A DNA stretch of 64,000 nt, taken from assembly GCA_038323095.1 (NCBI GenBank), contig JBBQGP010000002.1, positions 12,678 through 76,677 of the forward strand, read 5' to 3'. This DNA comes from Chloroflexia bacterium. Its GTDB lineage: Bacteria > Chloroflexota > Chloroflexia > Chloroheliales > Chloroheliaceae. A program made the translations under genes and the position numbers. This document shows positions 10,170 through 36,314 of the stretch, in pieces. Below the pieces are notes generated by a model. That model was not told the DNA's origin, made no database searches, and saw nothing but the letters and a program-made list of their open reading frames with translations. Each line of letters starts with the position of its first letter. Position 1 is the first letter of the stretch.

Positions 10170-10174
10170 CTTTT

Positions 10175-13100: not shown

Positions 13101-13711
13101 GCCTGAACTAACTTTGGATAGCTTTGCAGCAAACTTTGGCCCAGAGTTTCGGCCTTGTCATAGTAAAATTTGCGCCAGTAAGCTTCAAGCAAACCTTCCC
13201 GCACGTCCGGGCGTTCGGCGGCTTTCCCTTGTACCAGTCCAAATTCTTCAATGGCCCGGTCATAATTTCCGGCCAGTAAACTCCGATTAGCCGCGCCAAT
13301 TATGGTTTGCTGGCGGCGGGTGCGTTCGGTTTGGCTCAAGTTTAGCACATCGTACAGGCGGGAAAGCTCGGCTTTAACGTACACCAGCCGGGGGCTAAGT
13401 TCGATGGCCCGCTCATACCAGATAATTGCTTTTTCAGGCCGATTTTGGCGGCTGGCAATAAAACCGCGCGTACCGTAGCTCAAGCCGTCGCGTGGCTCGA
13501 TTTCGAGCGAATACTCGAAAAGTTGGTCGGCCTCGCTTAATTTGCCTAGCTGAACATAAGCTCTGGCAAGTAGCCGGGTAGCTTCCAGCGTACCGGGATA
13601 GTAATCCAGAATATGCAAACAAAGCCGGGCCGCTCCGGGCGCGTCGCCGGAAGCCAAACGTTGCTTGGCCTGTTGAATTAAGTCTGTAAGTTTAACCCTT
13701 GTAGTTGTCAT
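10175..13711 (-). CDS. Bitopic TPR / coiled-coil / Thr-Pro-linker / M23 (LytM) peptidase, 1178 aa
   Basis: N-terminal TPR repeats, one TM helix ([23 protein letters not shown]), a coiled coil, ~200 aa of T/P/A linker, and a C-terminal M23 domain with HTGIDI and GPHVHYE motifs. Confidence 0.8.
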
Positions 13712-16928: not shown

Positions 16929-18356
16929 TTGTTAATTTTGTCTATTTTTAGGAGAGGAAAGTATTACTGGCGGTGGCTTCTTGCTGGCGCGGTTGTAGTA
17001 TTATTTACAACAATGTTGTCCACAGTTTTTATTAGTGAATGGAGTGCGGCTCAGGCCGGGGGGGTGAACGGCTCTTATAAGGTAAGCTATAACGTAGTTG
17101 AACAATGGGATAGTGGCTATTATACTGAGGTTAAAATTAGTAATACCGGCTCAACACCGATTTCTAATTGGACTATTAGCTGGCAGCTAACACAGAACGA
17201 GCAAAGCCTGGCAAGTACCTGGGGTGCTAAATGTAGCCTGAATATTGGGCGGATTAGCTGTACTGGAAGCTCCACTATTCGAGTAAACAGCTCTGTTCAG
17301 TTCGGCACTGATTTGTATGGTAACGGCAAGATAACCTCGCCTACCATTTTTACTGTTAATGGAGTTACTGTTTCTACTCAGGCAACCACATCGGCAACTA
17401 CTGTTGCTCCTACTGCGTCACAAGCTACTACCGCACCAGCGACCAGGACTACTGTCGCCGCCACCCCTACTAAGACGGCAGTACCCACTGCTACGCCTGC
17501 CAGGGCAACGGCGACGGCGGTACCCACCTCAAATACGCCACCACCGACTGCCGCCGCTCCCGTCCCGCCGTCGGCAAGTACGCCCGGTGGCTGGTGGCAA
17601 CCCACGCCGGATAGACCAATTCATTGGCACTGGCAGCTCTCTGATGAGTTTGCCTATCCCAGAGACGTACTAACGAATGTCGAGCTATACGATATTGACG
17701 GAGAGTACGCTACCGCAGACAACGTTGCCAAGCTCCACGCTCTTGGCCCTAACGTTAAGGTGATTTGCTATTTTGATGCAGGAGTTTACGAAACCTATCG
17801 TTCCGACGCTGGTCGCTTTCCTAAATCTGTAATTGGTAATGCCGATACTGGCTGGAACGGCTCTTACTGGCTCGACATCCGACAGACCGATGCTTTATTG
17901 CCAATTATGCGTGACCGAATGCAAAATTGGTGTAAAAACAAGGGTTTTGACGCGGTTGAGCCGGATGAGACAGAAGTTTGGACTAATAATTCCGGCTTTC
18001 CTATAACCAAAGCCCAAAACAATCTTTATAACCAAAAGATAGCTGAAATGGCTCATTCGCTGGGCCTTTCGGTAGGGCTAAAGGGTAATACTACCGAAGC
18101 ACCAGAGTTATGGTCTTACTTCGATTGGACACTCAATGAACAGTGCTGGCAGTACAAGGAATGTGATTCGTTGAAGACTAGCTTTATTGACCACAACAAG
18201 GCCGTTTTCAATATTGAGTACAACGTTAATCCTGATTGTACTCAGGCGAATAGCTGGCATATGAACTCGGCCCGTCGTGACCTGAATTTAGTTGGGCCAA
18301 CCAATTCGGCCTATCAATACAGCCCTTGTATTCCAGATTCCAGGAGCGGCTGGTAG
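16929..18356 (+). CDS. Secreted CBM2-like + Thr/Ala/Pro linker + GH114 (endo-alpha-1,4-polygalactosaminidase family) protein
   Basis: Signal peptide. CBM2-like YKVSYNVVEQWDSGYYTEVKISNTG..ISNWTISW. GH114 blocks IHWHWQL, LYDIDGE, VICYFDAGVYETYRSD, WNGSYWLDIR, GFDAVEPDETE, SVGLKGN, NEQCWQYKEC, AVFNIEY. The start may be TTG 16938, which is better spaced from GGAGG at 16923-16927. Confidence 0.75.
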   Translation: MLILSIFRRGKYYWRWLLAGAVVVLFTTMLSTVFISEWSAAQAGGVNGSYKVSYNVVEQWDSGYYTEVKISNTGSTPISNWTISWQLTQNEQSLASTWGAKCSLNIGRISCTGSSTIRVNSSVQFGTDLYGNGKITSPTIFTVNGVTVSTQATTSATTVAPTASQATTAPATRTTVAATPTKTAVPTATPARATATAVPTSNTPPPTAAAPVPPSASTPGGWWQPTPDRPIHWHWQLSDEFAYPRDVLTNVELYDIDGEYATADNVAKLHALGPNVKVICYFDAGVYETYRSDAGRFPKSVIGNADTGWNGSYWLDIRQTDALLPIMRDRMQNWCKNKGFDAVEPDETEVWTNNSGFPITKAQNNLYNQKIAEMAHSLGLSVGLKGNTTEAPELWSYFDWTLNEQCWQYKECDSLKTSFIDHNKAVFNIEYNVNPDCTQANSWHMNSARRDLNLVGPTNSAYQYSPCIPDSRSGW

Positions 18357-19331: not shown

Positions 19332-20387
19332 ATGAATCGTTCAGTCTTGATTACTGGTGGTGCCGGCTTTATTGGTTCACACTTAGCTGAAGCCCTTTTG
19401 GATGCGGGAGAAGCAGTCACGATTATTGATGACCTTTCAACTGGTGCTGTTGGTAATATTCGCCACCTCAAGGCCCATCCCCGTTTTCGCTTTGTAATTG
19501 AGCCAGTGGCAAACCAGCAAGTTTTAGCCGAATTAGTGGACGAGTGTGATGTTATTGTACATCTAGCGGCGGCGGTGGGAGTGCAGCTAATTATCAATAG
19601 CCCGGTACGTACTATTGAGACCAACGTAGGCGGTACAGAAGTAGTTTTGAAGTGGGCCGCCAAGAAAGGCAAGCGAGTGCTAGTCGCCAGCACTTCCGAA
19701 GTTTACGGCAAGAGTACCGAACTTCCTTTCCGTGAGACCGCCGACCTTGTACTTGGCCCCTCCCATTTGGGCCGCTGGAGCTATGCCTGCTCCAAATTAC
19801 TGGATGAGTTTTTGGCATTGGGTTACTGGCAGGAAAAAGCGTTGCCTGTAACCGTTCTGCGCTTCTTTAATACAGTTGGGCCACGTCAGCTAGGTCGTTA
19901 TGGCATGGTTGTGCCGCGCTTTGTGCGTTCGGCCTTACGCAACGAACCACTCCAGGTTTACGGGGACGGGCAACAAACGCGCTGCTTTACCTACGTTGGT
20001 GATGCGGTTCGGGCAGTTATGTTGCTTTTAGATTGCCCCGACGCTATCGGTCAGGTGTTCAATGTTGGAAACCCGGAAGAAGTGACAATTGAGCAATTAG
20101 CCCGCCGGGTGATTGAAATAAGCGGTAGTCGCTCCGAGATTGCCTATATTCCCTATTCGCAGGCTTACGAAGGCGGAGCCGGGTACGAAGATATGCGTCG
20201 CCGCGTGCCATGCATTGATAAATTGGGCCGAGCAACTGGCTACCAGCCGCAAGTAAAGCTTAACGCTATCTTGCAATCTGTTATAGATTACGAGCGCAAG
20301 AATATGGAACACCATATTACTGCTTTCCCGGTTCTAAGCCACTCAGTTTCAATTACCAATTCCGAACTTGAGGCAGTGTCAGCCTAA
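19332..20387 (+). CDS. Extended-SDR NAD-dependent nucleotide-sugar decarboxylase/epimerase (ArnA-C / UXS-like)
   Basis: GGAGG at 19322-19326, 5 nt before ATG 19332 (MNRSVLITGGAGFIGSHL). Motifs STSEVYG and catalytic YACSK. The listed GTG 19266 start lies inside the repeat array. Confidence 0.75.
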   Translation: MNRSVLITGGAGFIGSHLAEALLDAGEAVTIIDDLSTGAVGNIRHLKAHPRFRFVIEPVANQQVLAELVDECDVIVHLAAAVGVQLIINSPVRTIETNVGGTEVVLKWAAKKGKRVLVASTSEVYGKSTELPFRETADLVLGPSHLGRWSYACSKLLDEFLALGYWQEKALPVTVLRFFNTVGPRQLGRYGMVVPRFVRSALRNEPLQVYGDGQQTRCFTYVGDAVRAVMLLLDCPDAIGQVFNVGNPEEVTIEQLARRVIEISGSRSEIAYIPYSQAYEGGAGYEDMRRRVPCIDKLGRATGYQPQVKLNAILQSVIDYERKNMEHHITAFPVLSHSVSITNSELEAVSA

Positions 20388-20489: not shown

Positions 20490-21785
20490 ATGCTAGTCGA
20501 CAAAATTAGATTAAAACAGGCAAGGATTGGAATTGTTGGAATGGGTTATGTCGGCCTACCCGCCGCCGTTACCTTTGCGGAAAAGGGTTTCAAAGTAACC
20601 GGCTTTGATATTGCGAAGTGGAAAGTTGAGCGGATTAACCGGGGCGATAGTTTTATTGAGGATATTTCAAGTAGCCAGCTAGGGGCAGTAGTTGCGATGG
20701 AACGCTTCCGGGCTACTTCCAACTCAGACGAACTAGCCGAGCAAGATGTCATTATTATCGCAGTTCCCACTCCCCTAAATAAGACCCGTGAACCTGACCT
20801 GACGGCGGTGCGCTCGGCAACAGCTGATATTGCCCGTAACTTACAGCCCGGTCAACTGATAATCCTGGAAAGCACCACCTATCCTGGGACCACGGAAGAA
20901 GTGGTTAAACCTATCCTGGAAAAAAGCGGGTTAAAGGCCGAAGAGGATTTTTATCTGGCTTACTCCCCGGAACGAATTGACCCAGGCAGTAAGTGGAATT
21001 TTGAGGATGTGCCGAAGGTCGTAGGTGGAATGACTCCCGCCAGCCTGGATGCAGCTTGTGCGCTTTACCAGCAAATACTCAAGCAGGTAGTGCCTATCTC
21101 TTCCACTCAGGCTGCCGAAATGGTCAAATTATTCGAGAACATTTTCCGGGTAGTGAATGTGGCCCTAGTCAATGAAATGGCCCTGTTATGCAACAGAATG
21201 AAGCTAAACATGTGGGAAGTGCTGGATGCGGCCAGTACCAAGCCTTACGGGTTTATGAAGTTTACGCCCGGCCCAGGAGTAGGCGGGCATTGTATCCCGG
21301 TAGACCCCTTCTACCTGACCTGGAAGGCTCGCGAGTACGGTTTTCACACCCGCTTTATTGAATTAGCCGGAGAAATCAATCTTCAGATGCCCTACTACGT
21401 CAAGGAACTGATCACACGTAGCCTTAACCTGCAAGGGAAATCGCTCAAAAACTCGAAGGTGCTGCTATTGGGAGTGGCATATAAGAAAGACGTTGGAGAT
21501 ATGCGAGAGTCTCCGGCCATCAAGGTGATTGAGCTGCTAGACGAGACGGAAGCCCAGCTCGTTTACCACGACCCTTTTGTGTCTGAATTTGAAGAAGGTA
21601 CTCACCGGCTACACTCGATGGAGCTAACCGACGCGCTTTTACAAGAGGCCGATTGTGTAGTCATCCTTACTGACCATACTTGCTTTGATTATGCCAACAT
21701 TGTCCGGCAAGCTCAAATGGTGGTAGATACACGCAACGCAACCAAAGCTATTAGCCAGGACCGAAACAAGATTATCCTACTTTAG
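20490..21785 (+). CDS. Nucleotide-sugar 6-dehydrogenase (UDP-GlcNAc/ManNAc dehydrogenase group: WecC/WbpA/TviB-like)
   Basis: IGIVGMGYVGLP Rossmann motif and catalytic-Cys motif GGHCIPVDP, typical of the N-acetylhexosamine dehydrogenase group. Confidence 0.8.
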   Translation: MLVDKIRLKQARIGIVGMGYVGLPAAVTFAEKGFKVTGFDIAKWKVERINRGDSFIEDISSSQLGAVVAMERFRATSNSDELAEQDVIIIAVPTPLNKTREPDLTAVRSATADIARNLQPGQLIILESTTYPGTTEEVVKPILEKSGLKAEEDFYLAYSPERIDPGSKWNFEDVPKVVGGMTPASLDAACALYQQILKQVVPISSTQAAEMVKLFENIFRVVNVALVNEMALLCNRMKLNMWEVLDAASTKPYGFMKFTPGPGVGGHCIPVDPFYLTWKAREYGFHTRFIELAGEINLQMPYYVKELITRSLNLQGKSLKNSKVLLLGVAYKKDVGDMRESPAIKVIELLDETEAQLVYHDPFVSEFEEGTHRLHSMELTDALLQEADCVVILTDHTCFDYANIVRQAQMVVDTRNATKAISQDRNKIILL

Positions 21786-21927
21786 AGCCTGAAATTTGGA
21801 CAAAGCTGGACAATGTCTGCATTACTTTAATGTAAACTGCCAGGCTAATCCCTAACCAGCAATCCGGCTTTGTCTAAATTCTTAAATTACTACCGACACT
21901 TATAGTTAGACCTTCAGGAGGTTGAAT

Positions 21928-24066
21928 GTGATTAATAGAATAAGCTTATTTCAGGGGGTAGTCGTACGGTTGGGCCTGGTATGCGCTCTCTTTGTAGCAA
22001 TTATGCTGACCGTGGTACCAAACCCAGCCGAAGCCGCTAAAGATAAGAAAGATAAGAAAGGCCATCATCAAATTGTGACTGGCCCGACCACGCCATCCCG
22101 GATAACTACTACGCCGCCTCGTGTTCTTGATCCGGCCCAACCACTCAAAGCCAAGAAAAAATCTGGGACTGGCCCGTTAAACACCAATTTTGCCGCCGCC
22201 CTTGCCCCTGTCGCCGCCGCGTCTACCAATCATACGCTGGATGCACGCGACATGAAGATTTTGCTTATTAGTGCTGTAGGCGGCTCTGACCCTGATTATC
22301 AGGCGATGAGTGCTTTTCTCAACCAGCTTGGTACTCCATTTGATACGCTGATTGCCTCTACCACGGTGCTTTCTTCAAATATGCTTTGGGATGGTGTGGC
22401 ACACGGCTACTATCAGGGTGTCATCTTGACCGATGGCGATTTACTATATGAATCCCCGGTTGGGAGCGGTAACTATGTAAGTGCTTTTACTGCTGATGAA
22501 TGGCAAACCCTCTCGAATTATGAAACCATGTTCGGGGTGCGGCAAGTCACTTCTTATACTATTCCTGGTTTGCCAGAAAGCTACGGCCTGTCAGACCCAA
22601 ATTTTGCCTCTCAGGATACCAGTGTTACTCCCCTCAAAGCGAACCTTACGGCTGCTGGAAAAACCGTTTTTCCATATATTAACGCAGCCAATCCTATCAC
22701 CATTCAATATGCCTGGACTTACCTGGCTAAAGTAGAATCGCCCCAGCCTGGTACGGTAGTCACCCCCTTACTAAATACTACCAATGGCTACACTGTCGCG
22801 GCTGTAAAGAAATATGCCGACGGGCGCGAGAATCTAGCTATAACCGCCGAAAACAATTCCTTTTTGATACACTCCCAGCTTTTGTCCTACGGTATCATTA
22901 ACTGGGTTACTAAGGGGCTATTTTTGGGTGAGCGGCACGCTACACTGAATATACAGCCTGACGACTTATTTATTGAAGATGATATTTGGGACACTCAGGT
23001 AATGACTGACACCACCGGCATTAGCTATCGCTTGACCGGGAACGATTTTAAACAATTTATGAGCTGGCAAAATTCTAGCCGCGTTAAATATCCTCTGGCT
23101 TCCGGGTTGAAGATTGAGTGGCCTTTCAATGCCGATGGAACTAATCCGAATAACTATAATTACGTTGATACACTAACACCAGAGGTTCTAAAAGATAAGG
23201 CTAGTTTCAACTATATCAACCACACCTTTACCCACGCTAATTTGGATAATATTGATGCAGCTACGCTTACCACAGAACTTCAAAAGAATAATAATTACGC
23301 CACAAACAAAGGGTTGACACCCTATTACAAAGACTCGATGATCCAACCTGATATTTCCGGGTTGTTCAATCCAGTTTTTGCTAATACTGCTTATCAGCAA
23401 GGCATCCGCTATATTATCTCGGACGCATCCCGGCCCGAATGGAGCAATCCTAGCCCTAACGCAGGTTTTTATAGCCAGTACCAATCCGGCCTGCTGATTA
23501 TCCCGCGTCATGCTTCTAACCTGTTCTACAATTTGACAACTCCCGCAGAATGGGTGTCGGAGTACAATTGTTACTACGGCCCACAGGGAGTTTGCCCAGA
23601 CTTTCCCAACTCTACCCGTTGGAACACTAATCTCAATTATCAGCAGATATTGGATGACGAATCAAATTTCTGGCTTTCGTACCTGTTAAAGTGGGACATT
23701 GACCCGCTTATGTTCCACCAACCAAATGCCAGAGCCTACGATGGAATTCATTCTTTATTAGGAGATTTGGTTGAAGCCACTCTGAAAAAATATACCAGCC
23801 TCTATAACTTGCCAATTCAAAACTTGACCCAGCACGAGGTTGGTATCAAAATGGCAAACCGAATGGCCTATAACGCCTCTGGCCTACAGGGTACGCTATA
23901 TCCAGGACAAAAAATTGTTTTGACTACTACGAAGGCGGCTTCAGTTCCAGTTACCTATGCCAAAAGCATAAGCGGAGCTGGTTTCCAAAATGAACTATAT
24001 GGCGGTCAATATATCTCAACTATTCCGATGGCGGCGGGCCAGACGCGCACGATTACTTTGCCATAG
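21928..24066 (+). CDS. Secreted 712-aa protein, candidate metal-dependent polysaccharide de-N-acetylase (Agd3/CE18-like hypothesis)
   Basis: GTG 21928 lies 6 nt after AGGAGG. Signal peptide. QPDD (aa 345-348), INHTFTHAN (HxxxH, aa 434-438) and PLMFHQP (aa 595-601) sit in CE4-like order. The coding call is solid. The function call is tentative. Confidence 0.5.
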   Translation: MINRISLFQGVVVRLGLVCALFVAIMLTVVPNPAEAAKDKKDKKGHHQIVTGPTTPSRITTTPPRVLDPAQPLKAKKKSGTGPLNTNFAAALAPVAAASTNHTLDARDMKILLISAVGGSDPDYQAMSAFLNQLGTPFDTLIASTTVLSSNMLWDGVAHGYYQGVILTDGDLLYESPVGSGNYVSAFTADEWQTLSNYETMFGVRQVTSYTIPGLPESYGLSDPNFASQDTSVTPLKANLTAAGKTVFPYINAANPITIQYAWTYLAKVESPQPGTVVTPLLNTTNGYTVAAVKKYADGRENLAITAENNSFLIHSQLLSYGIINWVTKGLFLGERHATLNIQPDDLFIEDDIWDTQVMTDTTGISYRLTGNDFKQFMSWQNSSRVKYPLASGLKIEWPFNADGTNPNNYNYVDTLTPEVLKDKASFNYINHTFTHANLDNIDAATLTTELQKNNNYATNKGLTPYYKDSMIQPDISGLFNPVFANTAYQQGIRYIISDASRPEWSNPSPNAGFYSQYQSGLLIIPRHASNLFYNLTTPAEWVSEYNCYYGPQGVCPDFPNSTRWNTNLNYQQILDDESNFWLSYLLKWDIDPLMFHQPNARAYDGIHSLLGDLVEATLKKYTSLYNLPIQNLTQHEVGIKMANRMAYNASGLQGTLYPGQKIVLTTTKAASVPVTYAKSISGAGFQNELYGGQYISTIPMAAGQTRTITLP

Positions 24067-24242: not shown

Positions 24243-27200
24243 ATGCTTAATTACAATAGGTCAAATGCTGATTTTTCTCAGAACAGACCAAAAGTAAAAG
24301 TTGCTAAAATTAAATTATTTTTTTCAAGCGTTGCCGAAAAAATTCTGCCAGCAAATTCTCTTTTTGCTACCTTGTCAAACGTGGCCCAGCCAGAATTAGT
24401 GCTGGGTAACTCTCAAGCTACGCTTGAACCTGAATTGCAGCAACCAAATGAAACTGAAATACCTCCGGCAAACGTTCCCACTAAACCAGCTCTCAAAGTT
24501 TTACTGATTGCGGAAGGTACTTATCCATTTCATTGGGGCGGAGTTAGCACCTGGTGTCATTTACTGATACGTGATTTGCCCGAAGTAGATTTTAGCCTGT
24601 ATAGCATAGTAGCCGACCCACTGATTAAACCTCAAATTAATTTACTCGACAATGTGGTAGAATTCATCCCTGTACCGCTCTGGGGTGTACTTGGCACTTT
24701 AGAGCTAAGCCCAAATTTAGGATTGGCCGAGTTACGTCACCGCAAACAGCACACCAGCGAGGCAGTTATTGCGGAAAAATTTGTGCCGGTATTTCGCGCT
24801 TTTATCAGGGATATGTTCCTCAGCGACACCGAGGCGGAACGTATGGGGGTGCATATTCACCAGATGTACCGGTTTTTCCTGGAATACGATTTCGATACTA
24901 CTTTTCATTCGCAAGCCGTTTGGAATTGCTACGTAAAAGCTATGCAGCAGGATTTCCCGCTTGCCGCCGCGCATCACGGTTATAGCGAGGCGACTTTTAC
25001 TTTGTCAGATATAACTCAGGGATTACAATGGCTGTATCATTGGTGTTTTCCTCTGGCAAAACCACTACCCCAGGTTGATGTGGCCCACGCTTCTACCGCA
25101 GGTATTAGCACAATGATTGGCGTAATTGCCAAGCTGGAATATGGGACGGCCTTTCTGCTTAGTGAACATGGTATTTACTTGCGAGAACGCTATTTAGCCG
25201 AAGCCAGCAATCCAAACACATTATTTCTCAAGCTGCTGGCCTTGCGCTTTGCGCGTCGCATGACCGACCTCAGCTATGTAGTAAGTGACCAAATTTCGCC
25301 CTGTTGCGACTACAACCAGCGTTGGGAACTGCAAAACGGAGTTCCGCCGGAGCGATTACGCACTATTTATTATGGGGCGGATGCCGACAAATTTTATGCT
25401 GGGGACAAGCCAATTGGAGACCCGCCGGTGGTGGTTTGGGTAGGACGTATTAATCCGCTCAAAGATGTGATTACCCTCCTGAAAGCGGCTGCAATAGTCC
25501 ATGAAACGCGGCCTGATATTAAATTCCGGCTTTATGGCTCTCCCCCTAAAGAGGATCAATCTTATTACGAGGAATGTTTGCTGCTACGGGCCAAGCTTGA
25601 CCTGGAAGAAGTCGTTATTTTTGCCGGTTATGCTTCAAATGCGGCTGTCGCTTATAACGAGGGAGATGTAGTATTACTTTCCAGCATTTCGGAAGGTTTC
25701 CCCTTCGCTACTTTAGAGGCAATGCTTTGTGGCAAGCCAGTAGTAGCAACCTCTGTGGGGGGCTTGCCAGAACAAATTGAGGGTTGCGGAATTGTGGTAG
25801 AGCCACGTAACCCGCAAGAAATGGGTGAGGCCGTCCTTACCCTGATGAACGACCCGGAATTATGCGCGCGCTATGGCAAAGCGGCCCGCGAGAAAGCGTT
25901 GCAGGAATTCAGTGTCCACCAATCCCGCGAAGCTTATCTATCAAGCTATCTTCGGGTCATGAAACAAAATAATCAGGAAAATGTCTTGGCAGGTAAAAGC
26001 GAATACCAATTGCAGCAAGTTCAGCAGCTATTAGCCCAAACCGCCGCAACCCAAAACAGCCTGCCTACAGCATCAAACCTGGATTGCGAAGTTGCGACCA
26101 AATTTGATATTGAACAAACGAACGATGCTAATAATGGCAGGCAACCCGCTACTAGCAAGGCCGTACCGCTTCGCGCTTCTATGCGTAGGTTGCAACTTTT
26201 GGTTTTGAATAAGCCACAGGAATGGTTGCCCCACGACCCGGAAAGTATTCGTACTATGGCTAAAGAAATAACCAGCCAAAATTTCCAGCCGGTTGATTAT
26301 TTGGAAATAGCTGCTATACTTGAATCAAAAGGCATTACTGACGAATTTGCTTCGCAACATCATAACGCTCCTGACACTTTTGAGCTGGCAAAGGCAGTAT
26401 TAGCAGCAATCCGGGCTGAACCACCAATAGCCGCACCGCCGGAGATTCCGACAGAACCAACCCAAAGCTTTAAGCAAGTGCTAGTCAGCTATTTACAAGG
26501 GCCAATTTCGTTTTTGCCCAGTTTGCTGGTGCTACTTACCATCCAGATTTTTAGTTTTGGCGGTCAATGGGCCGGAGGGCAAATAATGGCCCTAAGCCTG
26601 GGCATGAGTGCAGGCTTGCTTATAACCAACGGTTTTCTCCAGGCGGTAATGCGACGGGCCTCGATTTGCCTTTCGTTAGGTAATTCGCAATCTGCCCGCC
26701 GGTTTCTGATTCGCGGTTTGGGCGTAGCCGCTTTGATTGTCGTAGCGGTGGCACTATTAACCTTTCTGATTACAAGCTGGACAGAAGTTATAACATTGGA
26801 AGAGCGGCTTATTTTCTGCCTGGCTTTTGTGGCTCTTTCGACAATTTGGCTGGTGGGTGGCCCGTTGGCACTGGTGCAAGCCCAGATATGGCTGGGTATT
26901 GGACTGGGAGGGGGTTTGTTTACCGGCTTTGTGGCTGACCGAGTGGCGGCATTATTTACTGATTTGCATCTAGTGTTTGGTACTGTTCTGGGGTTTCTGG
27001 TAACACTTGGCCTGATTATTTGGGCGGAAACACGGGCTTTTGCCCCTAGAAGTAAGGCTGAAAAGGATAGCAAAATACTTTTACCTTCACCGGCTTATCT
27101 ACTTTACGAAGCTCTGCCTTACTTTATCTATGGCACACTCTACGCCCTGTTTATAATCGCCCCCCATTTTCTAGGCTGGTTTGGGAAACTTGGCGAAAAC

Positions 27201-27797
27201 CAAACCCGGCAATTCGCTATTACTAGCCTTGAAGTCGGGCTAACCCTGGCAATGTCGCCAGTAGTTTTGGTTAGTGGAATTATAGAACGAACCCTGCGCT
27301 TGTTCTGGACTAAAGCGGCGGTAGCCCAAAAAACTACTCCCGGTTTGCAAGTAGAGCAGTTTGGTAAAACGTTACTCAATTTTTACTGGCAGCAGTGGAG
27401 GCTTTATGAGCTAGTTTTGGCGGGACTTAGTCTTGCTTTCGCGCTACCGCTTTGGCTCGCGTTGGATAGCGGGCTGCTAAAAGGCTTGCTTGGCTCTAAT
27501 CCGACTACTGCTATAATTTTCTTTCTCACGGGACTGGTAATCTTCTTTTTGTTGGGGCAAGGGCTGTTTAACTGTGTATTTTGTATTACGCTGGCCCGGC
27601 CCCAATTCGCCGTCCGTGCTGTGGCTATTGCTATGGTGGTTATGTTCGCACTTGGAACGCCTTTGAGTCTATGGGTAGATTTTAGCTATTGTTTAGTAGC
27701 GTTTATTGCAGGAGTTTTCACTTTCGTAACAGTATCGTCCCGCCTGACCCAGCGGCTTTTAGCCTCAGCGGACTATTACTACTTTTCATTTTTTTAA
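24243..27797 (+). CDS. PelF-type GT4 glycosyltransferase (DUF3492 + GT1 domains) fused to a C-terminal ~420-aa polytopic membrane domain, 1184 aa
   Basis: Blocks match P. aeruginosa PelF as I recall it: LLIAEGTYPFHWGGVSTWCHLLI, HASTAGIS...LLSEHGIYLRERY, VGRINPLKDV, LLSSISEGFPFATLEAMLCGKPVVATSVGG. From about aa 760 there are at least 10 hydrophobic helices. Confidence 0.8.
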   Translation: MLNYNRSNADFSQNRPKVKVAKIKLFFSSVAEKILPANSLFATLSNVAQPELVLGNSQATLEPELQQPNETEIPPANVPTKPALKVLLIAEGTYPFHWGGVSTWCHLLIRDLPEVDFSLYSIVADPLIKPQINLLDNVVEFIPVPLWGVLGTLELSPNLGLAELRHRKQHTSEAVIAEKFVPVFRAFIRDMFLSDTEAERMGVHIHQMYRFFLEYDFDTTFHSQAVWNCYVKAMQQDFPLAAAHHGYSEATFTLSDITQGLQWLYHWCFPLAKPLPQVDVAHASTAGISTMIGVIAKLEYGTAFLLSEHGIYLRERYLAEASNPNTLFLKLLALRFARRMTDLSYVVSDQISPCCDYNQRWELQNGVPPERLRTIYYGADADKFYAGDKPIGDPPVVVWVGRINPLKDVITLLKAAAIVHETRPDIKFRLYGSPPKEDQSYYEECLLLRAKLDLEEVVIFAGYASNAAVAYNEGDVVLLSSISEGFPFATLEAMLCGKPVVATSVGGLPEQIEGCGIVVEPRNPQEMGEAVLTLMNDPELCARYGKAAREKALQEFSVHQSREAYLSSYLRVMKQNNQENVLAGKSEYQLQQVQQLLAQTAATQNSLPTASNLDCEVATKFDIEQTNDANNGRQPATSKAVPLRASMRRLQLLVLNKPQEWLPHDPESIRTMAKEITSQNFQPVDYLEIAAILESKGITDEFASQHHNAPDTFELAKAVLAAIRAEPPIAAPPEIPTEPTQSFKQVLVSYLQGPISFLPSLLVLLTIQIFSFGGQWAGGQIMALSLGMSAGLLITNGFLQAVMRRASICLSLGNSQSARRFLIRGLGVAALIVVAVALLTFLITSWTEVITLEERLIFCLAFVALSTIWLVGGPLALVQAQIWLGIGLGGGLFTGFVADRVAALFTDLHLVFGTVLGFLVTLGLIIWAETRAFAPRSKAEKDSKILLPSPAYLLYEALPYFIYGTLYALFIIAPHFLGWFGKLGENQTRQFAITSLEVGLTLAMSPVVLVSGIIERTLRLFWTKAAVAQKTTPGLQVEQFGKTLLNFYWQQWRLYELVLAGLSLAFALPLWLALDSGLLKGLLGSNPTTAIIFFLTGLVIFFLLGQGLFNCVFCITLARPQFAVRAVAIAMVVMFALGTPLSLWVDFSYCLVAFIAGVFTFVTVSSRLTQRLLASADYYYFSFF

Positions 27798-27820: not shown

Positions 27821-29482
27821 ATGAGAAATCCTCATTCAACAAATCGCCGCCGCTTTTTGATATATGGTGCGCTTGGCCTGGTTGGGGCCGCCGGAGTAGG
27901 TAGTCTTAAAACTATATTCAATCAGGAAGCGGATCCCCAACAAACTGCTAAGATTAATCCAATACCTACCAATGCTGTGACCCGAACCGTAGCCCCAACC
28001 CAAACGATTAGCCCGACCCCAACCAGCACTCCGATTCCGTGGCGCAATCCAATTGAAGCAGAAAACAAACAGTCTGGCAGTCCTAATTGGGTCATTACTA
28101 AAAGTGGCGATGATACGCTACTTCAAATTAAAGGTTATGCTTCGGCGACCAGCGTAAATAAAGGTGAGCCGATAAATCTGCACGTTTCGGTCAACCCGGC
28201 TCAAGATTACGCAATGGAAATCTACCGCATCGGTTGGTACAACGGGGTCGGCGGACGCTTGATGCAAACAGTCGGGCCGATAGCTGGCTCAACTCAAAAT
28301 ATACCTGCGCCGGACAGCTTAGGTACAGTCGCCTGTAATTGGCCGGTGGCTTACAGCTTGAAGGTGCCAGCCAGTTGGACGAGCGGAGTGTATCTGGTCA
28401 AGCTTACTAACACACAAGGGTGGCAAAATTACATTCATTTTGTGGTACGGGACGATGCGCGTGCTTCGGATTTGTTATTTCAGTGTAGCGTGACCACCTA
28501 TCAGGCTTATAACAATTTTGGTGGCAAAAGTCTTTATCCCGACAACAGCCTGGACGGGAAGGCGGCCCGCAAAGTTTCGTTTGACCGACCTTACGCCAAT
28601 ATTGGAGCTTTACAATTTTACGATTGGGAGATGCCACTGCTCCGTTTTATAGAGAAAAATAGCTACGATATATCCTATTGTACTAATTTAGATTTGCATT
28701 CCAACGCTAGTTTAATAGATTCTCACAAGGCTTTCCTTTCAACCGGCCACGACGAATATTGGAGCATGGCAATGTATGACAATGCTCTGGCAGCCCGTAG
28801 TAATGGTAAGCATTTGGCTTTTTTTGGAGGTAATGCGGTATACTGGCAAATCCGAATGGAAAGCTCGGCTGAGGGCATACCCAATCGGATAGTAACTTGT
28901 TACAAAAGTTATTATCTGGAAGACCCTCAATATCCTGGCCCTAAGACCACGTATCTCTGGCGCGAACTTATACCAGGCAAGCCTAGTTCGGAAGCAAGCC
29001 GACCCGAAAACCAGCTAATCGGCATTATGTACGATAGCTTTATCAATAGTACCGTTGGACAAGCATATGTGGTAACAAATAGTGACCACTGGGTCTATGC
29101 TGGAACGGGCTTTAGCAATGGAACAAGTGTGCCGGGGATTGTGGGTTACGAATGGGACAAACGCTACAGCAATGGTTTAGAGCCTGGCGGATTGGTGCAA
29201 CTTTCTAACTCATTAGTGGTAAACGAGAATAAAGTCAACACCTACGCGCACTCTTCAATTTATCAGGCCAGCAGTGGAGCATGGGTCTTTGCTACCGGCA
29301 CAATTTACTGGAGCTATGCTCTCGACTTTTGCGGTTTTCAAACTAACGATTTACGGAATGTAGGCATCCAGCAGACCACCAGCAATGTATTAAACCGCTT
29401 TGTTAATAACGGAGCGAAACCTTCAGCTTTGTTTGGTAATGTTTCTACAGGTTTAAAAAGCACGGCTACCCCTTCGCCCTGA
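27821..29482 (+). CDS. Tat-exported protein of the N,N-dimethylformamidase large-subunit-like family (function unknown)
   Basis: ATG 27821. Twin-arginine signal NRRRFLIYGALGLVGAAGVG. Family-like blocks IYRIGWYNGVGGR, WTSGVYLVKL, TTYQAYNNFGGKSLY, VSFDRPY, STGHDEYWS, FFGGNAVYWQIRME. Confidence 0.6.
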   Translation: MRNPHSTNRRRFLIYGALGLVGAAGVGSLKTIFNQEADPQQTAKINPIPTNAVTRTVAPTQTISPTPTSTPIPWRNPIEAENKQSGSPNWVITKSGDDTLLQIKGYASATSVNKGEPINLHVSVNPAQDYAMEIYRIGWYNGVGGRLMQTVGPIAGSTQNIPAPDSLGTVACNWPVAYSLKVPASWTSGVYLVKLTNTQGWQNYIHFVVRDDARASDLLFQCSVTTYQAYNNFGGKSLYPDNSLDGKAARKVSFDRPYANIGALQFYDWEMPLLRFIEKNSYDISYCTNLDLHSNASLIDSHKAFLSTGHDEYWSMAMYDNALAARSNGKHLAFFGGNAVYWQIRMESSAEGIPNRIVTCYKSYYLEDPQYPGPKTTYLWRELIPGKPSSEASRPENQLIGIMYDSFINSTVGQAYVVTNSDHWVYAGTGFSNGTSVPGIVGYEWDKRYSNGLEPGGLVQLSNSLVVNENKVNTYAHSSIYQASSGAWVFATGTIYWSYALDFCGFQTNDLRNVGIQQTTSNVLNRFVNNGAKPSALFGNVSTGLKSTATPSP

Positions 29483-29537: not shown

Positions 29538-31238
29538 ATGAGGTGCAACAAGCTGATTTGGGTGCTATGGTTTCTGGTTATAATGCCGGTTCTGGTGGCG
29601 TGTGCCTCGAAATCCAACCAAAACTCTATGACATATGGCGATGCTAAATTCAAACAAACTTGGGAATATAGCGATAAGCTGGTGAGTGAAGTACCGGGCG
29701 CAGGCCGCGGTTATACCTGGGGGCAAAATTCCTTTGGCATTTTGCAGGAAGAATATAATGAAGCACCGGCGGGTCGCCGGATGGTGCAATATTTTAACAA
29801 GAGCCGGATGGAACTTGCGCCGGATGGTAATTCTGTTACCAATGGGCTGCTTACTAAAGAACTTGTGGGCGGGCTGCGTCAGGTTGGTGAGGCTAAATAC
29901 ATTCAGTTTGAGCCTAGCAAAACCCAAATTGCCGGGGATGATAATAGTGCCGGAGGTAATACTATTGCCCCAGCTTACGCCAGCTTCAAAAAAGTTGTTA
30001 CATTTAGTTCGGGCGAAAATATTGCCCCTTCAAGGGTGAATCAAGCGGCAAACCTGGGACTGGGTAAAGCTGGTGAAGTAGCCACTCTCACCAATCCGCC
30101 AACTCAGCTATTAATTGGTTACTACGAGTCAACGCTGGGACACAATGTTCCTAAAGTTTTTGAAGATTACCAAAACTTGAGCGGGCAGGTTTGGAATGGG
30201 ACAAACTATCAAAAAGGCCGGGTCTATACTGAAAATCCAACTACTAATGTTTTTGGCTACCCTATCTCGGAAGCCTACTGGGTTAGAGCGGTAGTCGCCG
30301 GGGTCGAGAAAGACGTATTGGTACAACTTTTTGAGCGCAGGGTATTAACCTATACTCCTTCAAATGCTGAGCCTTTTAAAGTAGAAATGGGTAATATTGG
30401 GCAGCACTATTACCAGTGGCGTTATCTGTCTGGTACTGCTATCCCCGCGCCACCGGCGGCACCGGCGGCAAAGTGGTGGCTACCTACGCCAGATAAACCA
30501 ATTCACTGGCACTGGCAACTCTCTGAGGATTTTGTTTATCCCAGGGATGTACTGCCTAACGTAGAAGTGTACGACATTGATGGAGAACACGCTACAGCTG
30601 AGACGGTTGCCAAGCTCCATGCTCTTGGCCCTAACGTTAAGGTGATTTGCTATTTTGATGCAGGAGTTTATGAAACCTATCGTTCCGACGCTGGTCGCTT
30701 TCCTAAATCTGTGATTGGTAATGCCGATACTGGTTGGGATGGCTCTTACTGGCTCGACATTCGACAGACTAATATTTTGCTCCCGATTATGCGTGACCGA
30801 ATTCAGCAGTGGTGCAAGGATAAAGGTTTTGATGCTATCGAGCCGGACGAGACCGAGGTTTGGAGTAATAAATCAGGCTTTTCCATTACCAAAGAGCAAA
30901 ACAACTTTTATAATCAGAAAATAGCTGAAATAGGACATTCGATGGGTCTTTCGGTAGGATTAAAAGGTAACACTGGTGAAACGCCGGAGCTATGGCCCTA
31001 TTTCGATTGGACTTTGAATGAGCAGTGCTGGCATTTCAAGGAGTGTAATTTGCTTAAAACCAGTTTTATTGACCACAACAAAGCAGTTTTCAACATTGAA
31101 TACGAGACTAGCCCGGATTGCAACCAGGCGAATAGCTGGCATATGAATTCGGCCCTGCGTGACTTAAATCTGGTTGGCTCAACTAATTCGGCTTATCGCT
31201 ATACCCCCTGTGTGTCTAACTCTAAAGATAAGTGGTAA
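29538..31238 (+). CDS. Lipoprotein with N-terminal repeat-module domain + GH114 domain (paralog of 16929-18356)
   Basis: Lipobox PVLVAC|AS. The N-terminal half contains VQYFNKSRMEL and VQLFERRVLTY modules. The C-terminal ~255 aa are roughly 80-85% identical by eye to the other GH114 domain. Confidence 0.75.
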   Translation: MRCNKLIWVLWFLVIMPVLVACASKSNQNSMTYGDAKFKQTWEYSDKLVSEVPGAGRGYTWGQNSFGILQEEYNEAPAGRRMVQYFNKSRMELAPDGNSVTNGLLTKELVGGLRQVGEAKYIQFEPSKTQIAGDDNSAGGNTIAPAYASFKKVVTFSSGENIAPSRVNQAANLGLGKAGEVATLTNPPTQLLIGYYESTLGHNVPKVFEDYQNLSGQVWNGTNYQKGRVYTENPTTNVFGYPISEAYWVRAVVAGVEKDVLVQLFERRVLTYTPSNAEPFKVEMGNIGQHYYQWRYLSGTAIPAPPAAPAAKWWLPTPDKPIHWHWQLSEDFVYPRDVLPNVEVYDIDGEHATAETVAKLHALGPNVKVICYFDAGVYETYRSDAGRFPKSVIGNADTGWDGSYWLDIRQTNILLPIMRDRIQQWCKDKGFDAIEPDETEVWSNKSGFSITKEQNNFYNQKIAEIGHSMGLSVGLKGNTGETPELWPYFDWTLNEQCWHFKECNLLKTSFIDHNKAVFNIEYETSPDCNQANSWHMNSALRDLNLVGSTNSAYRYTPCVSNSKDKW

Positions 31239-31312: not shown

Positions 31313-32047
31313 ATGGATACTTTATTTTCTGAACCTGCCCCAGGGTTTGGCCGAGCTACAAACCAAAATCTTTTCGTTATCTACTATGGCTGGCTGATTG
31401 CAGATAGTGCGGGGAAGCCAAATCAGGTGGCACAGTGCATTGCGGCGGCCCAACCGAAGTTGCTAATTGCCTCATTTTATACTTTTGAACCCAAATATCT
31501 TAATTTGAGTGAACCAGTACGGGCGATGCTACATCAGGCAGGAGTAAGCATCTTTGCTTATGTCGATACGGATTATGCCAGACGAGACCGTGATATAGTC
31601 AAAGCCGAAGCTTATAATTATCTTAGTCAAGACATGGATGGTATCTTTTTCGATCAGGCTTGCAACTTTTTAGACGGCTCTCAGTTCGCCTATTATCAGG
31701 ATTTGTATGAGTATGTACGAAGGTATAACAAACTGGTTATCCTTAATCCGGGTATCGGTCTACCGGGCGAGGAAATAATGAACGTAACCGATATTTTAAT
31801 GGTAGAACATGCCTGGCGCGAACTCTACCAAACTAATCCGTGGTTTACGGCTTACCCACCTGAACGGTTTATGGGAAATTCTAGCAACGAACACCCCGAA
31901 CTGTCCTGGCACTACCATATTAATTGTGAGGTTGCGACCCAGGATACGAAAGAAGCCTGGAATAAAGGGGTTGGTTGGCATTTTAGCACCGACAAATACA
32001 TTACTTTGCCGGATTGGTTTTCACAATACGCTTCTAACCTGCGCTAA
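31313..32047 (+). CDS. Spherulin4 / Sph3 (GH135)-like protein, no signal peptide
   Basis: Spherulin4-like blocks: VSIFAYVDTDYARRD, MDGIFFDQ (family consensus GIFFDE), VILNPG, DILMVEH. The N-terminus is not hydrophobic. Confidence 0.6.
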   Translation: MDTLFSEPAPGFGRATNQNLFVIYYGWLIADSAGKPNQVAQCIAAAQPKLLIASFYTFEPKYLNLSEPVRAMLHQAGVSIFAYVDTDYARRDRDIVKAEAYNYLSQDMDGIFFDQACNFLDGSQFAYYQDLYEYVRRYNKLVILNPGIGLPGEEIMNVTDILMVEHAWRELYQTNPWFTAYPPERFMGNSSNEHPELSWHYHINCEVATQDTKEAWNKGVGWHFSTDKYITLPDWFSQYASNLR

Positions 32048-32752: not shown

Positions 32753-32876
32753 AAAACTGTTCTAAAAATCTGGTAGCCCAAAGAAAAGAGCGGCAACGTT
32801 CTTTTTTTGTGCCTTCGTATCTTTAATAAAGATTTATAAAAGAATTACAAAATTATAAAGAAAGGTGGAAATAAAA

Positions 32877-33971
32877 ATGATGACCCGAACTAATCAATTT
32901 GTGACAAATCGATTGGCAATAGGGCAGGGCGGAGTAGGGCGTACCCTCGCTTTGCTGGTAGTTCTTAACGGTTTGTGGGGCGGAGCATGGTTGCCCTACA
33001 AAGTTGCGCTGGAACAAATGCCGGTATCAGTTTATGCCGCCTTGCGGGTGCTAATCGTATCGCTGGTGTTGTTGCCGTTCGCCTGGCTGGATTTGCGACG
33101 ACATCTGCGGGCGGGTGGTAGCAAGCCGGGCCTTAAAAACTTACCGCGCCTGCTGCTACTAGCTTTAATTGGGGTAGTGCTAAACAATTTGCTGGTTTTT
33201 AACGGGGCAAAACTGGCAAACGCAACCGATGCTTCGCTGCTGGCGATTACCGAAACGCTGTTTACCGCACTATTGGCCTGGTTCTTCCTGAAAGAAAAAT
33301 TCCCGCCCATGAAGTTGCTTGGCCTGTCAATAGGAGCGTTCGGGGTTTATTTGCTGGTGGCAAAAGGTTTGTATTTGCCTCAATTAAATAATGGTGGGCA
33401 AGCTTTGGGTAGCTTGCTGCTGCTGGGCGGGTTTGGCTTTGAAGCTTTGTATACTTTGCTGGCTGCCGGAAGCGTGCGCCGTTTTCCGCCACTGGTAATA
33501 ATCGTTGGCACAAACTTGACCTCGCTTTTGTTCTGGGGGCCAGCCGCCGGGATAAGTTTGGCCGAATCTAATTGGCAATGGCCGCAACTGGATTGGGCCG
33601 GAATTGCTGCGATTGCTTATCTGGTGCTGATTTGTGGCGCGTTTGGCTATAGCGTCTGGTTTAAGGCTTTGCGAAAAGTTGAGCCGGGCCTGATTTCAAT
33701 TACGCTATTTCTACAACCACTGGTCGGCGTAATATTAGGTGCGACTTTGCTGCACGAAAAACTAACCGAGGTTACTTTAATTGGCGGTTCGCTGGTAGTT
33801 GCCAGTTTGGGCCTGATAGCACACGGTGCAACTCAGAGCCATAGCTCAACTACTTCCGAACTGGGTAGCAACGGGCAGGCATCTTACGCCGAAATTGCGC
33901 TGGACGAACCTGAACGCCAGCGTCTTGGCCGCGCCCTTTCCAAATCGCTATCCCTCGAAGGGGATGATTAA
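32877..33971 (+). CDS. DMT-superfamily (EamA-like) transporter
   Basis: AAGGTGGA RBS 8 nt before ATG 32877. About 10 TM helices in two EamA-like halves. Confidence 0.8.
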   Translation: MMTRTNQFVTNRLAIGQGGVGRTLALLVVLNGLWGGAWLPYKVALEQMPVSVYAALRVLIVSLVLLPFAWLDLRRHLRAGGSKPGLKNLPRLLLLALIGVVLNNLLVFNGAKLANATDASLLAITETLFTALLAWFFLKEKFPPMKLLGLSIGAFGVYLLVAKGLYLPQLNNGGQALGSLLLLGGFGFEALYTLLAAGSVRRFPPLVIIVGTNLTSLLFWGPAAGISLAESNWQWPQLDWAGIAAIAYLVLICGAFGYSVWFKALRKVEPGLISITLFLQPLVGVILGATLLHEKLTEVTLIGGSLVVASLGLIAHGATQSHSSTTSELGSNGQASYAEIALDEPERQRLGRALSKSLSLEGDD

Positions 33972-35315: not shown

Positions 35316-36314
35316 TCAAGACTGCCAGCCATTGAGGTGGGATTTGTGCCAGTTGTAGGCCGAGCGTATCATATCTTCAAGATTATATCGAGCGTGCCAA
35401 TCAAGTTCTTTGGTAGCTTTGGTATTGTCGGCCCAAATCGCCATTGCATCGCCGGGACGACGGGCTACTTCATCCACCTTGAAGTCTGTGCCGGTAACAC
35501 GTTTGGCAGTGTCAATTACTTCCTTAACAGTATTGCCGTTACCCGTCCCCAGATTATAGGACGTAGTCTGGTTGGTTTTCATCAAATATTCCAGAGCCAG
35601 AATATGGGCTACTGCTAAGTCTACTACGTGAATATAATCGCGGACACAAGTACCATCGCGGGTTGGGTAGTCTGTCCCGAAAACCTTGACCGATTCTATT
35701 ATGCCCAGCGCAGCTTTCAAAACTAGCGGTATCAAATTTAGAGTGATTGACCAATCCTCGCCAATTTTAGCGTCAGGAGCAGCCCCAGCTACGTTAAAAT
35801 AGCGCAAACTGGAACTTCGCAGACCATAAGCGGTATCGTAGCGTTTCAGGGCGCGTTCGACCATCAATTTGCTTTCCCCGTAGGGGCTTTCCGGGTTAAA
35901 CGGATTGTTGTCCTCGCTAACTGGCAAACTTTCGGGATTGCCGAAAATGGCGCAGGTAGAAGAAAAAATAAAGTAGTTAATTTTATGGCGTACCATCGCA
36001 TCCAGCAAATTCAGCGTGCCACAAAAATTATTGTGAAAATATTTGCCGGGTTGCTCTACCGATTCGCCTACCGATTTATAGGCGGCAAAGTGAATAACCG
36101 CGTCGGGCTTCTGCTCCTGAAAAACCCGGTCTAGTAAGGCACTATCGGCGGTATCACCTACGATTAGCTTATCAGCCACGCCCAGAGCTTCGATAGCTTG
36201 CCGGAAACCTTTTTCCAGCGTATCCAAAATTATTACATCGTGGCCTCGTTCGATTAATTCGCGCACCGTATGTGAACCAATATAGCCAGCCCCACCCGTT
36301 ACTAAAACTTTCAT
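35316..36314 (-). CDS. galE: UDP-glucose (or UDP-GlcNAc) 4-epimerase
   Basis: MKVLVTGGAGYIGSH, catalytic YGESK, and full-length GalE-like layout. Confidence 0.85.
   Translation of the reverse strand: MKVLVTGGAGYIGSHTVRELIERGHDVIILDTLEKGFRQAIEALGVADKLIVGDTADSALLDRVFQEQKPDAVIHFAAYKSVGESVEQPGKYFHNNFCGTLNLLDAMVRHKINYFIFSSTCAIFGNPESLPVSEDNNPFNPESPYGESKLMVERALKRYDTAYGLRSSSLRYFNVAGAAPDAKIGEDWSITLNLIPLVLKAALGIIESVKVFGTDYPTRDGTCVRDYIHVVDLAVAHILALEYLMKTNQTTSYNLGTGNGNTVKEVIDTAKRVTGTDFKVDEVARRPGDAMAIWADNTKATKELDWHARYNLEDMIRSAYNWHKSHLNGWQS

Follow-up and report, generated by a model that had tools for sequence, protein, structure and literature searches.

Pel systems are known from Pseudomonas aeruginosa (pelABCDEFG) and Bacillus cereus (pelDEA(DA)FG), and the PelF glycosyltransferase (GT) of Pseudomonas needs three partners. 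A 64,000-nucleotide stretch from a Chloroflexia bacterium (contig JBBQGP010000002.1, positions 12,678 to 76,677; the whole of this stretch is referred to as the window) raises the question of whether a single gene can take the place of two of these components. A first-pass annotation of the window had read the gene at 24243–27797 as a PelF homologue joined to a multi-helix membrane domain, the two together combining polymerisation and translocation. Whether the gene is real, what its membrane half is and what the protein would do are addressed in turn. The gene is a genuine fusion and is probably a natural single-chain PelF-PelG pair, forming the polymerising and export core of a synthase-dependent system of the Pel or galactosaminogalactan (GAG) type. 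The PelF-PelG fusion is a recurrent and apparently undescribed variant of a known system, rather than a new kind of exporter.

The gene is one unbroken open reading frame (ORF) on the forward strand, beginning with ATG and encoding 1184 amino acids (aa) before the stop codon. The peptide YLEIAAILESKGITDEF is located at approximately aa 686–724 of the product. An independent metagenome assembly (Logan assembly SRR24807096, contig L014) has 99.94% DNA identity to the window across 12,850 bases with zero gaps, and its product is also 1184 aa, with S156R the sole residue change. The 90% cluster of the fusion protein has three members of 1184 aa, which come from three assemblies. The closest relative, P0285, is 76% identical, while P0007 has 63% identity across aa 69–1184, linker included, and keeps the whole architecture. 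Homologues at 76%, 63% and 35–55% identity all retain the single-ORF form. The fusion gene is genuine and intact, and the combination of a PelF-type family 4 glycosyltransferase (GT4) and a polytopic membrane domain in one polypeptide, as first annotated, has been recovered independently. The parts of the protein and the genes around it are listed in Table 1.

Table 1. Features of the fusion gene and of its surroundings, in window positions (TM, transmembrane; SDR, short-chain dehydrogenase/reductase; Tat, twin-arginine translocation; AF2, AlphaFold2; pLDDT, predicted local distance difference test).
Feature	Positions	Strand	Basis
GH114 hydrolase (Ega3/PelA-hydrolase-like endo-alpha-1,4-galactosaminidase family), secreted, with CBM2	16929..18356	+	Pfam Glyco_hydro_114 E 2e-61, CBM_2 E 5e-14
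SDR epimerase/decarboxylase-like gene	19332..20387	+	Pfam; closest equivalog UDP-xylose synthase/ArnA-type decarboxylase, below cut-off
Nucleotide-sugar dehydrogenase	20490..21785	+	Pfam; passes NCBIfam TIGR03026 (444.8 bits); closest equivalog UDP-ManNAc dehydrogenase/TviB, below cut-off
Agd3-like deacetylase (CBM87 + CE18), N-terminal signal or anchor, directly upstream of the fusion	21922..24066	+	Pfam
Whole ORF: fusion of PelF-like GT4, helical adaptor and PelG-like 12-TM domain	24243..27797	+	ORF, independent assembly, homologues
N-terminal extension, aa 1–84, predicted disordered, lineage-specific	24243..24494	+	pLDDT, alignment of relatives
PelF-type GT4 (GT-B) domain, aa 85–575	24495..25967	+	Pfam, NCBIfam, Foldseek
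Spacer, aa 576–642: long GT C-terminal helix, then disordered, poorly conserved stretch	25968..26168	+	AF2, consensus
Conserved cytoplasmic helical adaptor, aa 643–725	26169..26417	+	Conservation in 111 fusions, AF2
PelG-like domain, predicted MOP fold, 12 TM helices, aa 743–1184, N-in/C-in	26469..27794	+	hhalign, AF2, Foldseek, charge count
Tat-signal DMFA2_C protein, directly downstream of the fusion	27821..29482	+	Pfam DMFA2_C E 4.5e-117; start from L014 gene call
Second GH114 hydrolase, lipoprotein-like signal	29538..31238	+	Pfam Glyco_hydro_114 E 6e-61
Spherulin4-family (Sph3-like) protein	31313..32047	+	Pfam Spherulin4 E 2.7e-16, 60.3 bits against a cut-off of 30.2
EamA-family transporter, just past the cluster	32865–33971		Pfam
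True GalE, just outside the cluster	35316–36314	-	Family assignment

The PelF-like region, first placed at about aa 85–600, is borne out by family models and by fold. Pfam finds DUF3492 at aa 85–370 and Glycos_transf_1 at aa 392–550, and with the NCBIfam PelF equivalog (NF038011, cut-off 100) the score is 168.6 bits, aa 86–552 corresponding to model positions 2–472 of 489. Foldseek with aa ~85–600 retrieves the retaining GT4 enzymes GlgM, MshA and BshA (E ~1e-13), and HepE. Because E484 and E492 (E-x7-E), R402, K407 and E308-H309-G310 are invariant across 111 fusions, this half looks like a competent PelF-type retaining GT4 with its catalytic residues intact. The AF2 model of the full-length chain, made from 111 sequences, has a mean pLDDT of 88.2 and a predicted template modelling score (pTM) of 0.86, which suggests that the domains are confidently positioned relative to one another. 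PelF is otherwise a soluble, stand-alone cytoplasmic protein recruited by PelD, PelE and PelG; here the GT is covalently joined to a membrane domain.

In the membrane half, where at least 10 hydrophobic helices had been counted, a Kyte-Doolittle scan and the AlphaFold helices give 12 TM helices between aa 743 and 1174. Of the lysine and arginine residues in the predicted loops, 18 lie on the inner side and 3 on the outer side, from which an N-in topology and a cytoplasmic GT4 domain are predicted. The remark in the first-pass annotation that no clear PelG-like sequence could be seen is correct as far as Pfam is concerned, since the PelG model (PF16933, gathering score 29 bits) does not match aa 573–1184 even at E <= 10. 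Profile-profile comparison gives a different answer. When a profile of 141 aligned family members was compared by hhalign with an alignment of PelG proteins from Paraburkholderia-like bacteria, Pseudoalteromonas, Cetobacterium, Sulfitobacter and Azospirillum, the two matched with a probability of 97.1% and an E of 7.2e-11 over 418 columns (query 99–540, target 15–454). The alignment is collinear from the first helix to the last, including the C-terminal DYYY / EYETY tail. As controls, the reversed PelG alignment gave E 0.23 and five block-shuffled PelG alignments gave E >= 0.023. Identity between the family and PelG is only ~16% in the profile alignment, and an earlier hhalign comparison against just two PelG sequences, a shallow target, had reached a probability of 57.6%.

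Relatives of the membrane domain bridge the distance to the Pfam family. The Balneolaceae partner matches the PelG model over its full length at 44.5 bits, which is above the gathering score, and it is followed by the fusion P0328 (24.4 bits) and by members from Paenibacillus (23.1 bits), Caldithrix (18.7 bits) and Arcobacter (9.9 bits). Among the Pfam matches of these relatives PelG is the sole family of the multidrug/oligosaccharidyl-lipid/polysaccharide (MOP) superfamily. The AF2 model of aa 643–1184 has a pLDDT of 93.6 and a pTM of 0.87, and Foldseek with this model returns MOP-superfamily matches exclusively (MATE, MurJ, WzxE), with E down to 9.5e-06, ~440–590 columns and target-normalised TM-scores of ~0.4–0.7. 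The 12-TM architecture is thus the same as that of MATE, MurJ and Wzx proteins, whereas the fusion domain has no sequence-level membership in those families, is joined to a GT and has a substrate presumed to be a polymer. PelG is characteristically encoded directly downstream of pelF, and the corresponding membrane protein is fused to the GT here and adjacent to it in most unfused relatives. Taken by profile and by modelled fold, the domain is a very divergent member of the PelG family with a MOP fold.

The ~160 aa between the GT4 domain and the first TM helix had been described as one linker. The region consists of two parts, a disordered spacer (~576–641) and a conserved helical module (643–725), which is here called the adaptor. 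In the spacer, a helix at 558–601 is followed by pLDDT values <50 at 603–641, and the consensus of the fusions in this region is mostly 'x'. The adaptor carries the motif P-x-D-x-LE-x-x-A-x-LES-x-G-x-TD ... F-x-LA, starting at P683, which is the most conserved non-catalytic stretch of the fusions: E694, D700 and F713 are invariant in the 111 sequences, and P683, D685, L687, E688, A691, G697 and A703 are nearly so. Its pLDDT is mostly 85–96, with ~54 and 69 in the first two 10-residue blocks. Canonical PelG (~457 aa) starts at TM1 and has no adaptor, whereas in the fusion the adaptor stands ahead of TM1, and in unfused relatives from many phyla the motif lies in the cytoplasm, at the N-terminal end of the membrane protein. 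It is probable from this placement and conservation that the adaptor docks the GT4 domain onto the exporter. In two unfused relatives (L001 1576–2133 and L002 3477–4067) a gene of its own, encoding 185–196 aa, is found between pelF and the membrane-protein gene, with the adaptor motif at the C-terminus and a weak DUF4388 match (E 0.003–0.013) at the N-terminus. The adaptor can therefore exist as a separate protein.

The N-terminal extension of ~85 aa that had been noted is present (~84 aa) and is predicted to be disordered, with pLDDT <50 for aa 1–72. Its DNA is AT-rich, and no family was found for it. The first ~35 residues are kept only in P0285, and across other relatives the length of the extension ranges from 0 to ~125 aa. 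It is absent or variable in other fusions, which begin directly at M-x-V-L-L-I-x-EGTYP.

The survey of the spread of this arrangement proposed in the first-pass annotation shows that it is recurrent. An exhaustive HMMER search of the membrane family with a seven-sequence profile (E <= 1e-3) finds 1033 representatives, 403 of them at E <= 1e-30. Most are stand-alone proteins of ~520–550 aa, with ~12 fusions (1050–1220 aa) among the best 150, and DUF3492 and GT1 are present at the N-terminus in all eight of the eight long proteins tested. A profile of 12 fusions recovers more than 100 distinct 90% clusters with proteins of 1040–1270 aa. The named sources are Caldilineaceae, Chloroflexales, Chloroflexia, Anaerolineae, Litorilinea and Dormibacteraeota, together with Actinomycetota, Mycobacteriales and Acidimicrobiia. 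The fused form is mainly found in Chloroflexota, with some in Actinomycetota and Dormibacterota. The closest named relatives of the window protein, at 49–57% identity, are from Chloroflexia, Chloroflexales and Herpetosiphonaceae. These proteins are already in public databases, where the NCBI label is merely 'GT4 family glycosyltransferase PelF', and a search of the literature for a PelF-PelG fusion, or for a comparison of the membrane part of fungal Gtb3 with PelG, found no description. A word-indexed search with the C-terminal 540 aa, which returned 6 stand-alone proteins, had suggested that the fusion was unique to this gene, and this was overturned by the HMMER and profile searches.

In a census of the 80 best species-representative loci, 7–8 are fused, the ambiguous one being Actinomycetes L036. 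The fused loci belong to Herpetosiphonaceae, Chloroflexales, Anaerolineae (two), Caldilineaceae, Actinomycetota and a truncated metagenome-assembled genome labelled Proteobacteria. Another 64–65 have a separate GT gene, with the membrane-protein gene adjoining or 1–2 genes downstream, and span Flavobacterium, Sulfurimonas, Arcobacter, Thermoanaerobaculia, Paenibacillus, Balneolaceae, Calditrichota, Nitrospirae and others. When the GT domains are compared in a rough neighbour-joining tree with no bootstrap, the fused genes fall into one clade that includes a few split members. Its neighbours are split Chloroflexota genes and the PelF of the Deinococcus, Streptomyces and Thermus agd3 operons, and it lies far from proteobacterial PelF. 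The pattern suggests that fusion took place once or a few times, and that genes occasionally split again or acquired a frameshift.

Two loci depart from the common arrangements. In an Anaerolineae locus of the fusion type (L055 9956–13218) two overlapping ORFs are present, one for the GT and adaptor (631 aa) and one for the membrane part (483 aa); the break is just past the adaptor, and stems either from a frameshift error or from a secondary fission whose breakpoint differs. In L017 (3381–6536) a 1051-aa membrane protein, P0047, matches the PelG-like profile in five stretches. Its gene comes after two tandem PelF-like genes and beside DUF2194 and GH114 genes, and it may have a duplicated or insertion-rich PelG-like domain. 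An intron-bearing fungal gene, suspected for multi-stretch matches of this kind, was rejected for P0047, whose locus is bacterial.

The earlier observation that there is no separate pelD, pelE or pelG nearby is confirmed; in Pel systems PelD is the c-di-GMP receptor and PelE a scaffold. None is found among the 28 window ORFs scanned with Pfam, in which the GGDEF, GAF and PelD families have no match, and BLAST with five canonical PelD/PelE pairs, a search of limited sensitivity, finds neither protein in 88 fused or split loci. The proposal that the fusion makes up for missing pelD, pelE and pelG is not sustained, as PelG is within the fusion and PelD and PelE are equally undetected beside the unfused relatives. 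The absence of PelD and PelE is for this reason best seen as a trait of the clade, rather than as a consequence of the fusion. The outer-membrane export proteins PelB and PelC are likewise not found among the scanned window ORFs, which include no PelC-like lipoprotein; the sole tetratricopeptide repeat (TPR) match is a 1178-aa protein with TPR repeats at the N-terminus and a peptidase-M23 domain at the C-terminus (10175–13711), which has no porin-like part. There is no PelA in the usual sense either, as the GH114 domains are in separate secreted proteins and the deacetylase is of the Agd3 type.

The genes on either side of the fusion are those of a polysaccharide cluster. The Agd3-like product scores 114.5 bits with Agd3_CE (E 7e-33) and 58.6 bits with CBM87_Agd3 (E 1e-15), the cut-off being 27.6 for each, and the two GH114 genes score 207 and 206 bits. 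Agd3-like, dehydrogenase and SDR genes are found beside 7 of 10 fused loci. The two GH114 genes have ~81% nucleotide identity over ~515 bases of their catalytic domains (30683–31197 and 17801–18315) and differ in their N-terminal parts, which are CBM2 in one and a lipoprotein-like signal with a ~300-aa region of no family in the other; this looks like a recent duplication within the cluster. The DMFA2_C gene (N,N-dimethylformamidase beta-subunit-like) also follows the fusion in the 63%-identical relative (L016 4216–5796), and the Herpetosiphonaceae locus L020 has a homologue too. The protein matches no NCBIfam model, and no part in Pel or GAG systems was found described for it. Upstream of the cluster, on the reverse strand at 8529–13711, are the TPR/M23 gene and a gene for a GH18 (chitinase-family) protein, which are cell-wall or glycan-active types and may or may not be functionally linked to the cluster. 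Further away, the 90% cluster of the window topoisomerase I (42398–44743, 781 aa) is represented by a 54-aa fragment from Photorhabdus labelled 'sigma factor-like HTH', which looks like a clustering oddity of the protein collection and not biology.

Compared with Pel systems, the window has a GT half that passes the PelF model with DUF3492 and GT1, a membrane half that is a remote PelG homologue by profile, the GT-then-membrane order of pelF-pelG, and GH114 hydrolases. It differs in that the two are one polypeptide, in that PelA, PelB, PelC, PelD and PelE are not found in the window, in its Agd3-type (CE18) deacetylase in place of PelA, and in that the Pfam PelG model misses the fusion domain. 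The gene set also matches that of agd3 operons in bacteria such as Deinococcus, Streptomyces and Thermus, which share Agd3-like, PelF-like GT, membrane, GH114, Spherulin4 and sugar-nucleotide proteins. According to Bamford et al. 2020 (PMC7229062), a multi-spanning membrane protein and a cytoplasmic GT are always encoded in such operons. The membrane protein of the Deinococcus operon is a detectable homologue of the fusion domain, helical motif included. Their GT and membrane protein are separate genes, whereas those of the window are fused, and the window adds the dehydrogenase and the Tat-signal DMFA2_C gene. No Chloroflexota names occur in the supplementary files of that study (PMC7229062).

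From these families the following course of events can be proposed. The GT4 domain, which the covalent link and the adaptor would keep at the membrane, would polymerise a sugar derived from a UDP-hexosamine, most likely UDP-N-acetylgalactosamine (UDP-GalNAc) or a derivative of it made by the adjoining dehydrogenase and SDR enzymes. With the GT4 domain docked by the helical module onto the PelG-like domain, the latter would conduct the chain outward across the membrane, and the covalent joining of the two halves would stand in for the recruitment of a soluble PelF by way of PelD and PelE. Outside the cell, the Agd3-like CE18 enzyme would partly de-N-acetylate the polymer, and trimming would fall to the Sph3-like enzyme and the pair of GH114 enzymes, as it does for bacterial Pel and fungal GAG. 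By analogy with these enzyme families, the product would be a polymer rich in alpha-1,4-linked GalNAc and galactosamine.

Several points weigh against a PelF-PelG synthase and exporter. When the linker and the membrane part are scanned with Pfam and NCBIfam, nothing useful is returned even at E <= 10, so that membership of the PelG family rests on profile-profile and fold evidence. Because a dehydrogenase and a UDP-xylose-synthase-like SDR gene adjoin 7 of 10 fused loci, the donor may be a uronic or decarboxylated hexosamine sugar rather than plain UDP-GalNAc, and the two genes hint at a product that differs from Pel or GAG. Beyond the window ORFs, PelD and PelE were sought at the level of BLAST only. 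The polymer, the donor sugar and the transport are predictions from sequence in this case, and the GT-membrane interface and any channel are hypothetical. PelG is regarded as an exporter of the MOP superfamily and as a partner of PelF within a PelDEFG complex, yet the export of free polymer by PelG-type MOP proteins is itself a prediction (PMC13254593).

That last point leaves room for the main rival, a GT-plus-flippase mechanism, in which the GT4 domain makes an oligosaccharide linked to undecaprenyl phosphate, the MOP domain acts on it as a flippase in the manner of Wzx or MurJ, and polymerisation or attachment takes place outside. The glycan-acting structural neighbours that have been solved, MurJ and WzxE, all flip lipid-linked substrates, and transport by PelG is a prediction in the literature (PMC13254593). 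However, neither the cluster nor the scanned window ORFs contain an initiating phosphoglycosyltransferase, a Wzy-type polymerase or a chain-length regulator, and the Agd3, GH114 and Sph3 families form the context of synthase-dependent Pel and GAG systems. Because the initiating transferase and the polymerase are not seen in the scanned ORFs, the flippase mechanism is unlikely. It is also quite improbable that the PelG-like domain only anchors or scaffolds the GT4 domain and extracellular partners while another protein exports the polymer. PelG has been proposed to contact other Pel proteins through its TM helices (PMC13254593), and the EamA-family transporter gene just past the cluster could be the exporter in such a scheme. 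Yet E956, Y960, Y963, E997, P1006 and R805, which are polar or charged residues inside TM helices, are strongly conserved in the 111 fusions, and the full 12-helix MOP architecture is kept; this constraint exceeds the needs of an anchor. The fused loci also have no other conserved neighbour that would qualify as a polysaccharide exporter.

The remaining two alternatives fare worse. A new translocation domain unrelated to PelG, as the first-pass annotation had suggested, would explain the silence of the Pfam and NCBIfam models and the low identity to PelG. It is nevertheless very improbable in view of the end-to-end collinear PelG match with clean controls, the family members that pass or approach the Pfam PelG score with no other MOP family matched, the MOP-only fold matches and the unfused membrane genes lying directly downstream of pelF or 1–2 genes on, and the 'novel translocon' reading was rejected. 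A sequencing or assembly frameshift that merged separate pelF, small-protein and membrane-protein genes, the outcome that was to have overturned the annotation, could be imagined from relatives L001, L002 and L004, in which the parts are separate, overlapping genes, and from the break in L055, but can practically be dismissed given the gap-free independent assembly over 12.85 kb with the same ORF, the three 1184-aa cluster members, the single-ORF homologues, the more than 100 fusion clusters and an AF2 model that covers the entire chain.

With the PelF-PelG pair as the preferred reading, the likeness to fungi can be considered. Gtb3 is described as a single transmembrane glycosyltransferase that is thought to both polymerise and export, and at ~300 kDa it is hard to study owing to its size and membrane location (PMC9860509). 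Four families of the GAG cluster of Aspergillus fumigatus are represented in the window (Agd3, Ega3/GH114, Sph3/Spherulin4 and a membrane-bound GT4), and because the gene content matches in this way the analogy of the fusion to Gtb3 is a reasonable one. For the role of the fungal epimerase Uge3, the window offers only the UDP-xylose-synthase-like SDR and the GalE outside the cluster. The window fusion is ~130 kDa, compared with ~300 kDa for fungal Gtb3/Gt4c, and its host is bacterial. Published work on Gtb3 was searched for a domain map of its membrane part, and none was found. A more far-reaching version is possible but doubtful: the fused bacterial gene would be the counterpart of Gtb3 and possibly near the donor lineage, the synthase-exporter, already fused, having passed to fungi along with the agd3, ega3 and sph3 families, from a bacterium like those of the Chloroflexota or Actinomycetota, with the adaptor as a built-in substitute for PelD and PelE.

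The fusion bears on how Pel and GAG are polymerised and passed through the membrane, and on how PelF and PelG cooperate. A natural fusion of ~130 kDa, without detected PelD or PelE, supplies independent genetic evidence for PelF and PelG working as a unit. As they are fused in one chain, a 1:1 ratio of PelF to PelG would be expected. The adaptor marks a likely GT-docking element that canonical PelG does not have. The 'PelF' labels on proteins of 1100–1200 aa conceal their exporter half. The fusion sharpens the hypothesis of a bacterial origin for the fungal GAG cluster, and it is a compact candidate for reconstitution and cryo-electron microscopy of this class of synthase.

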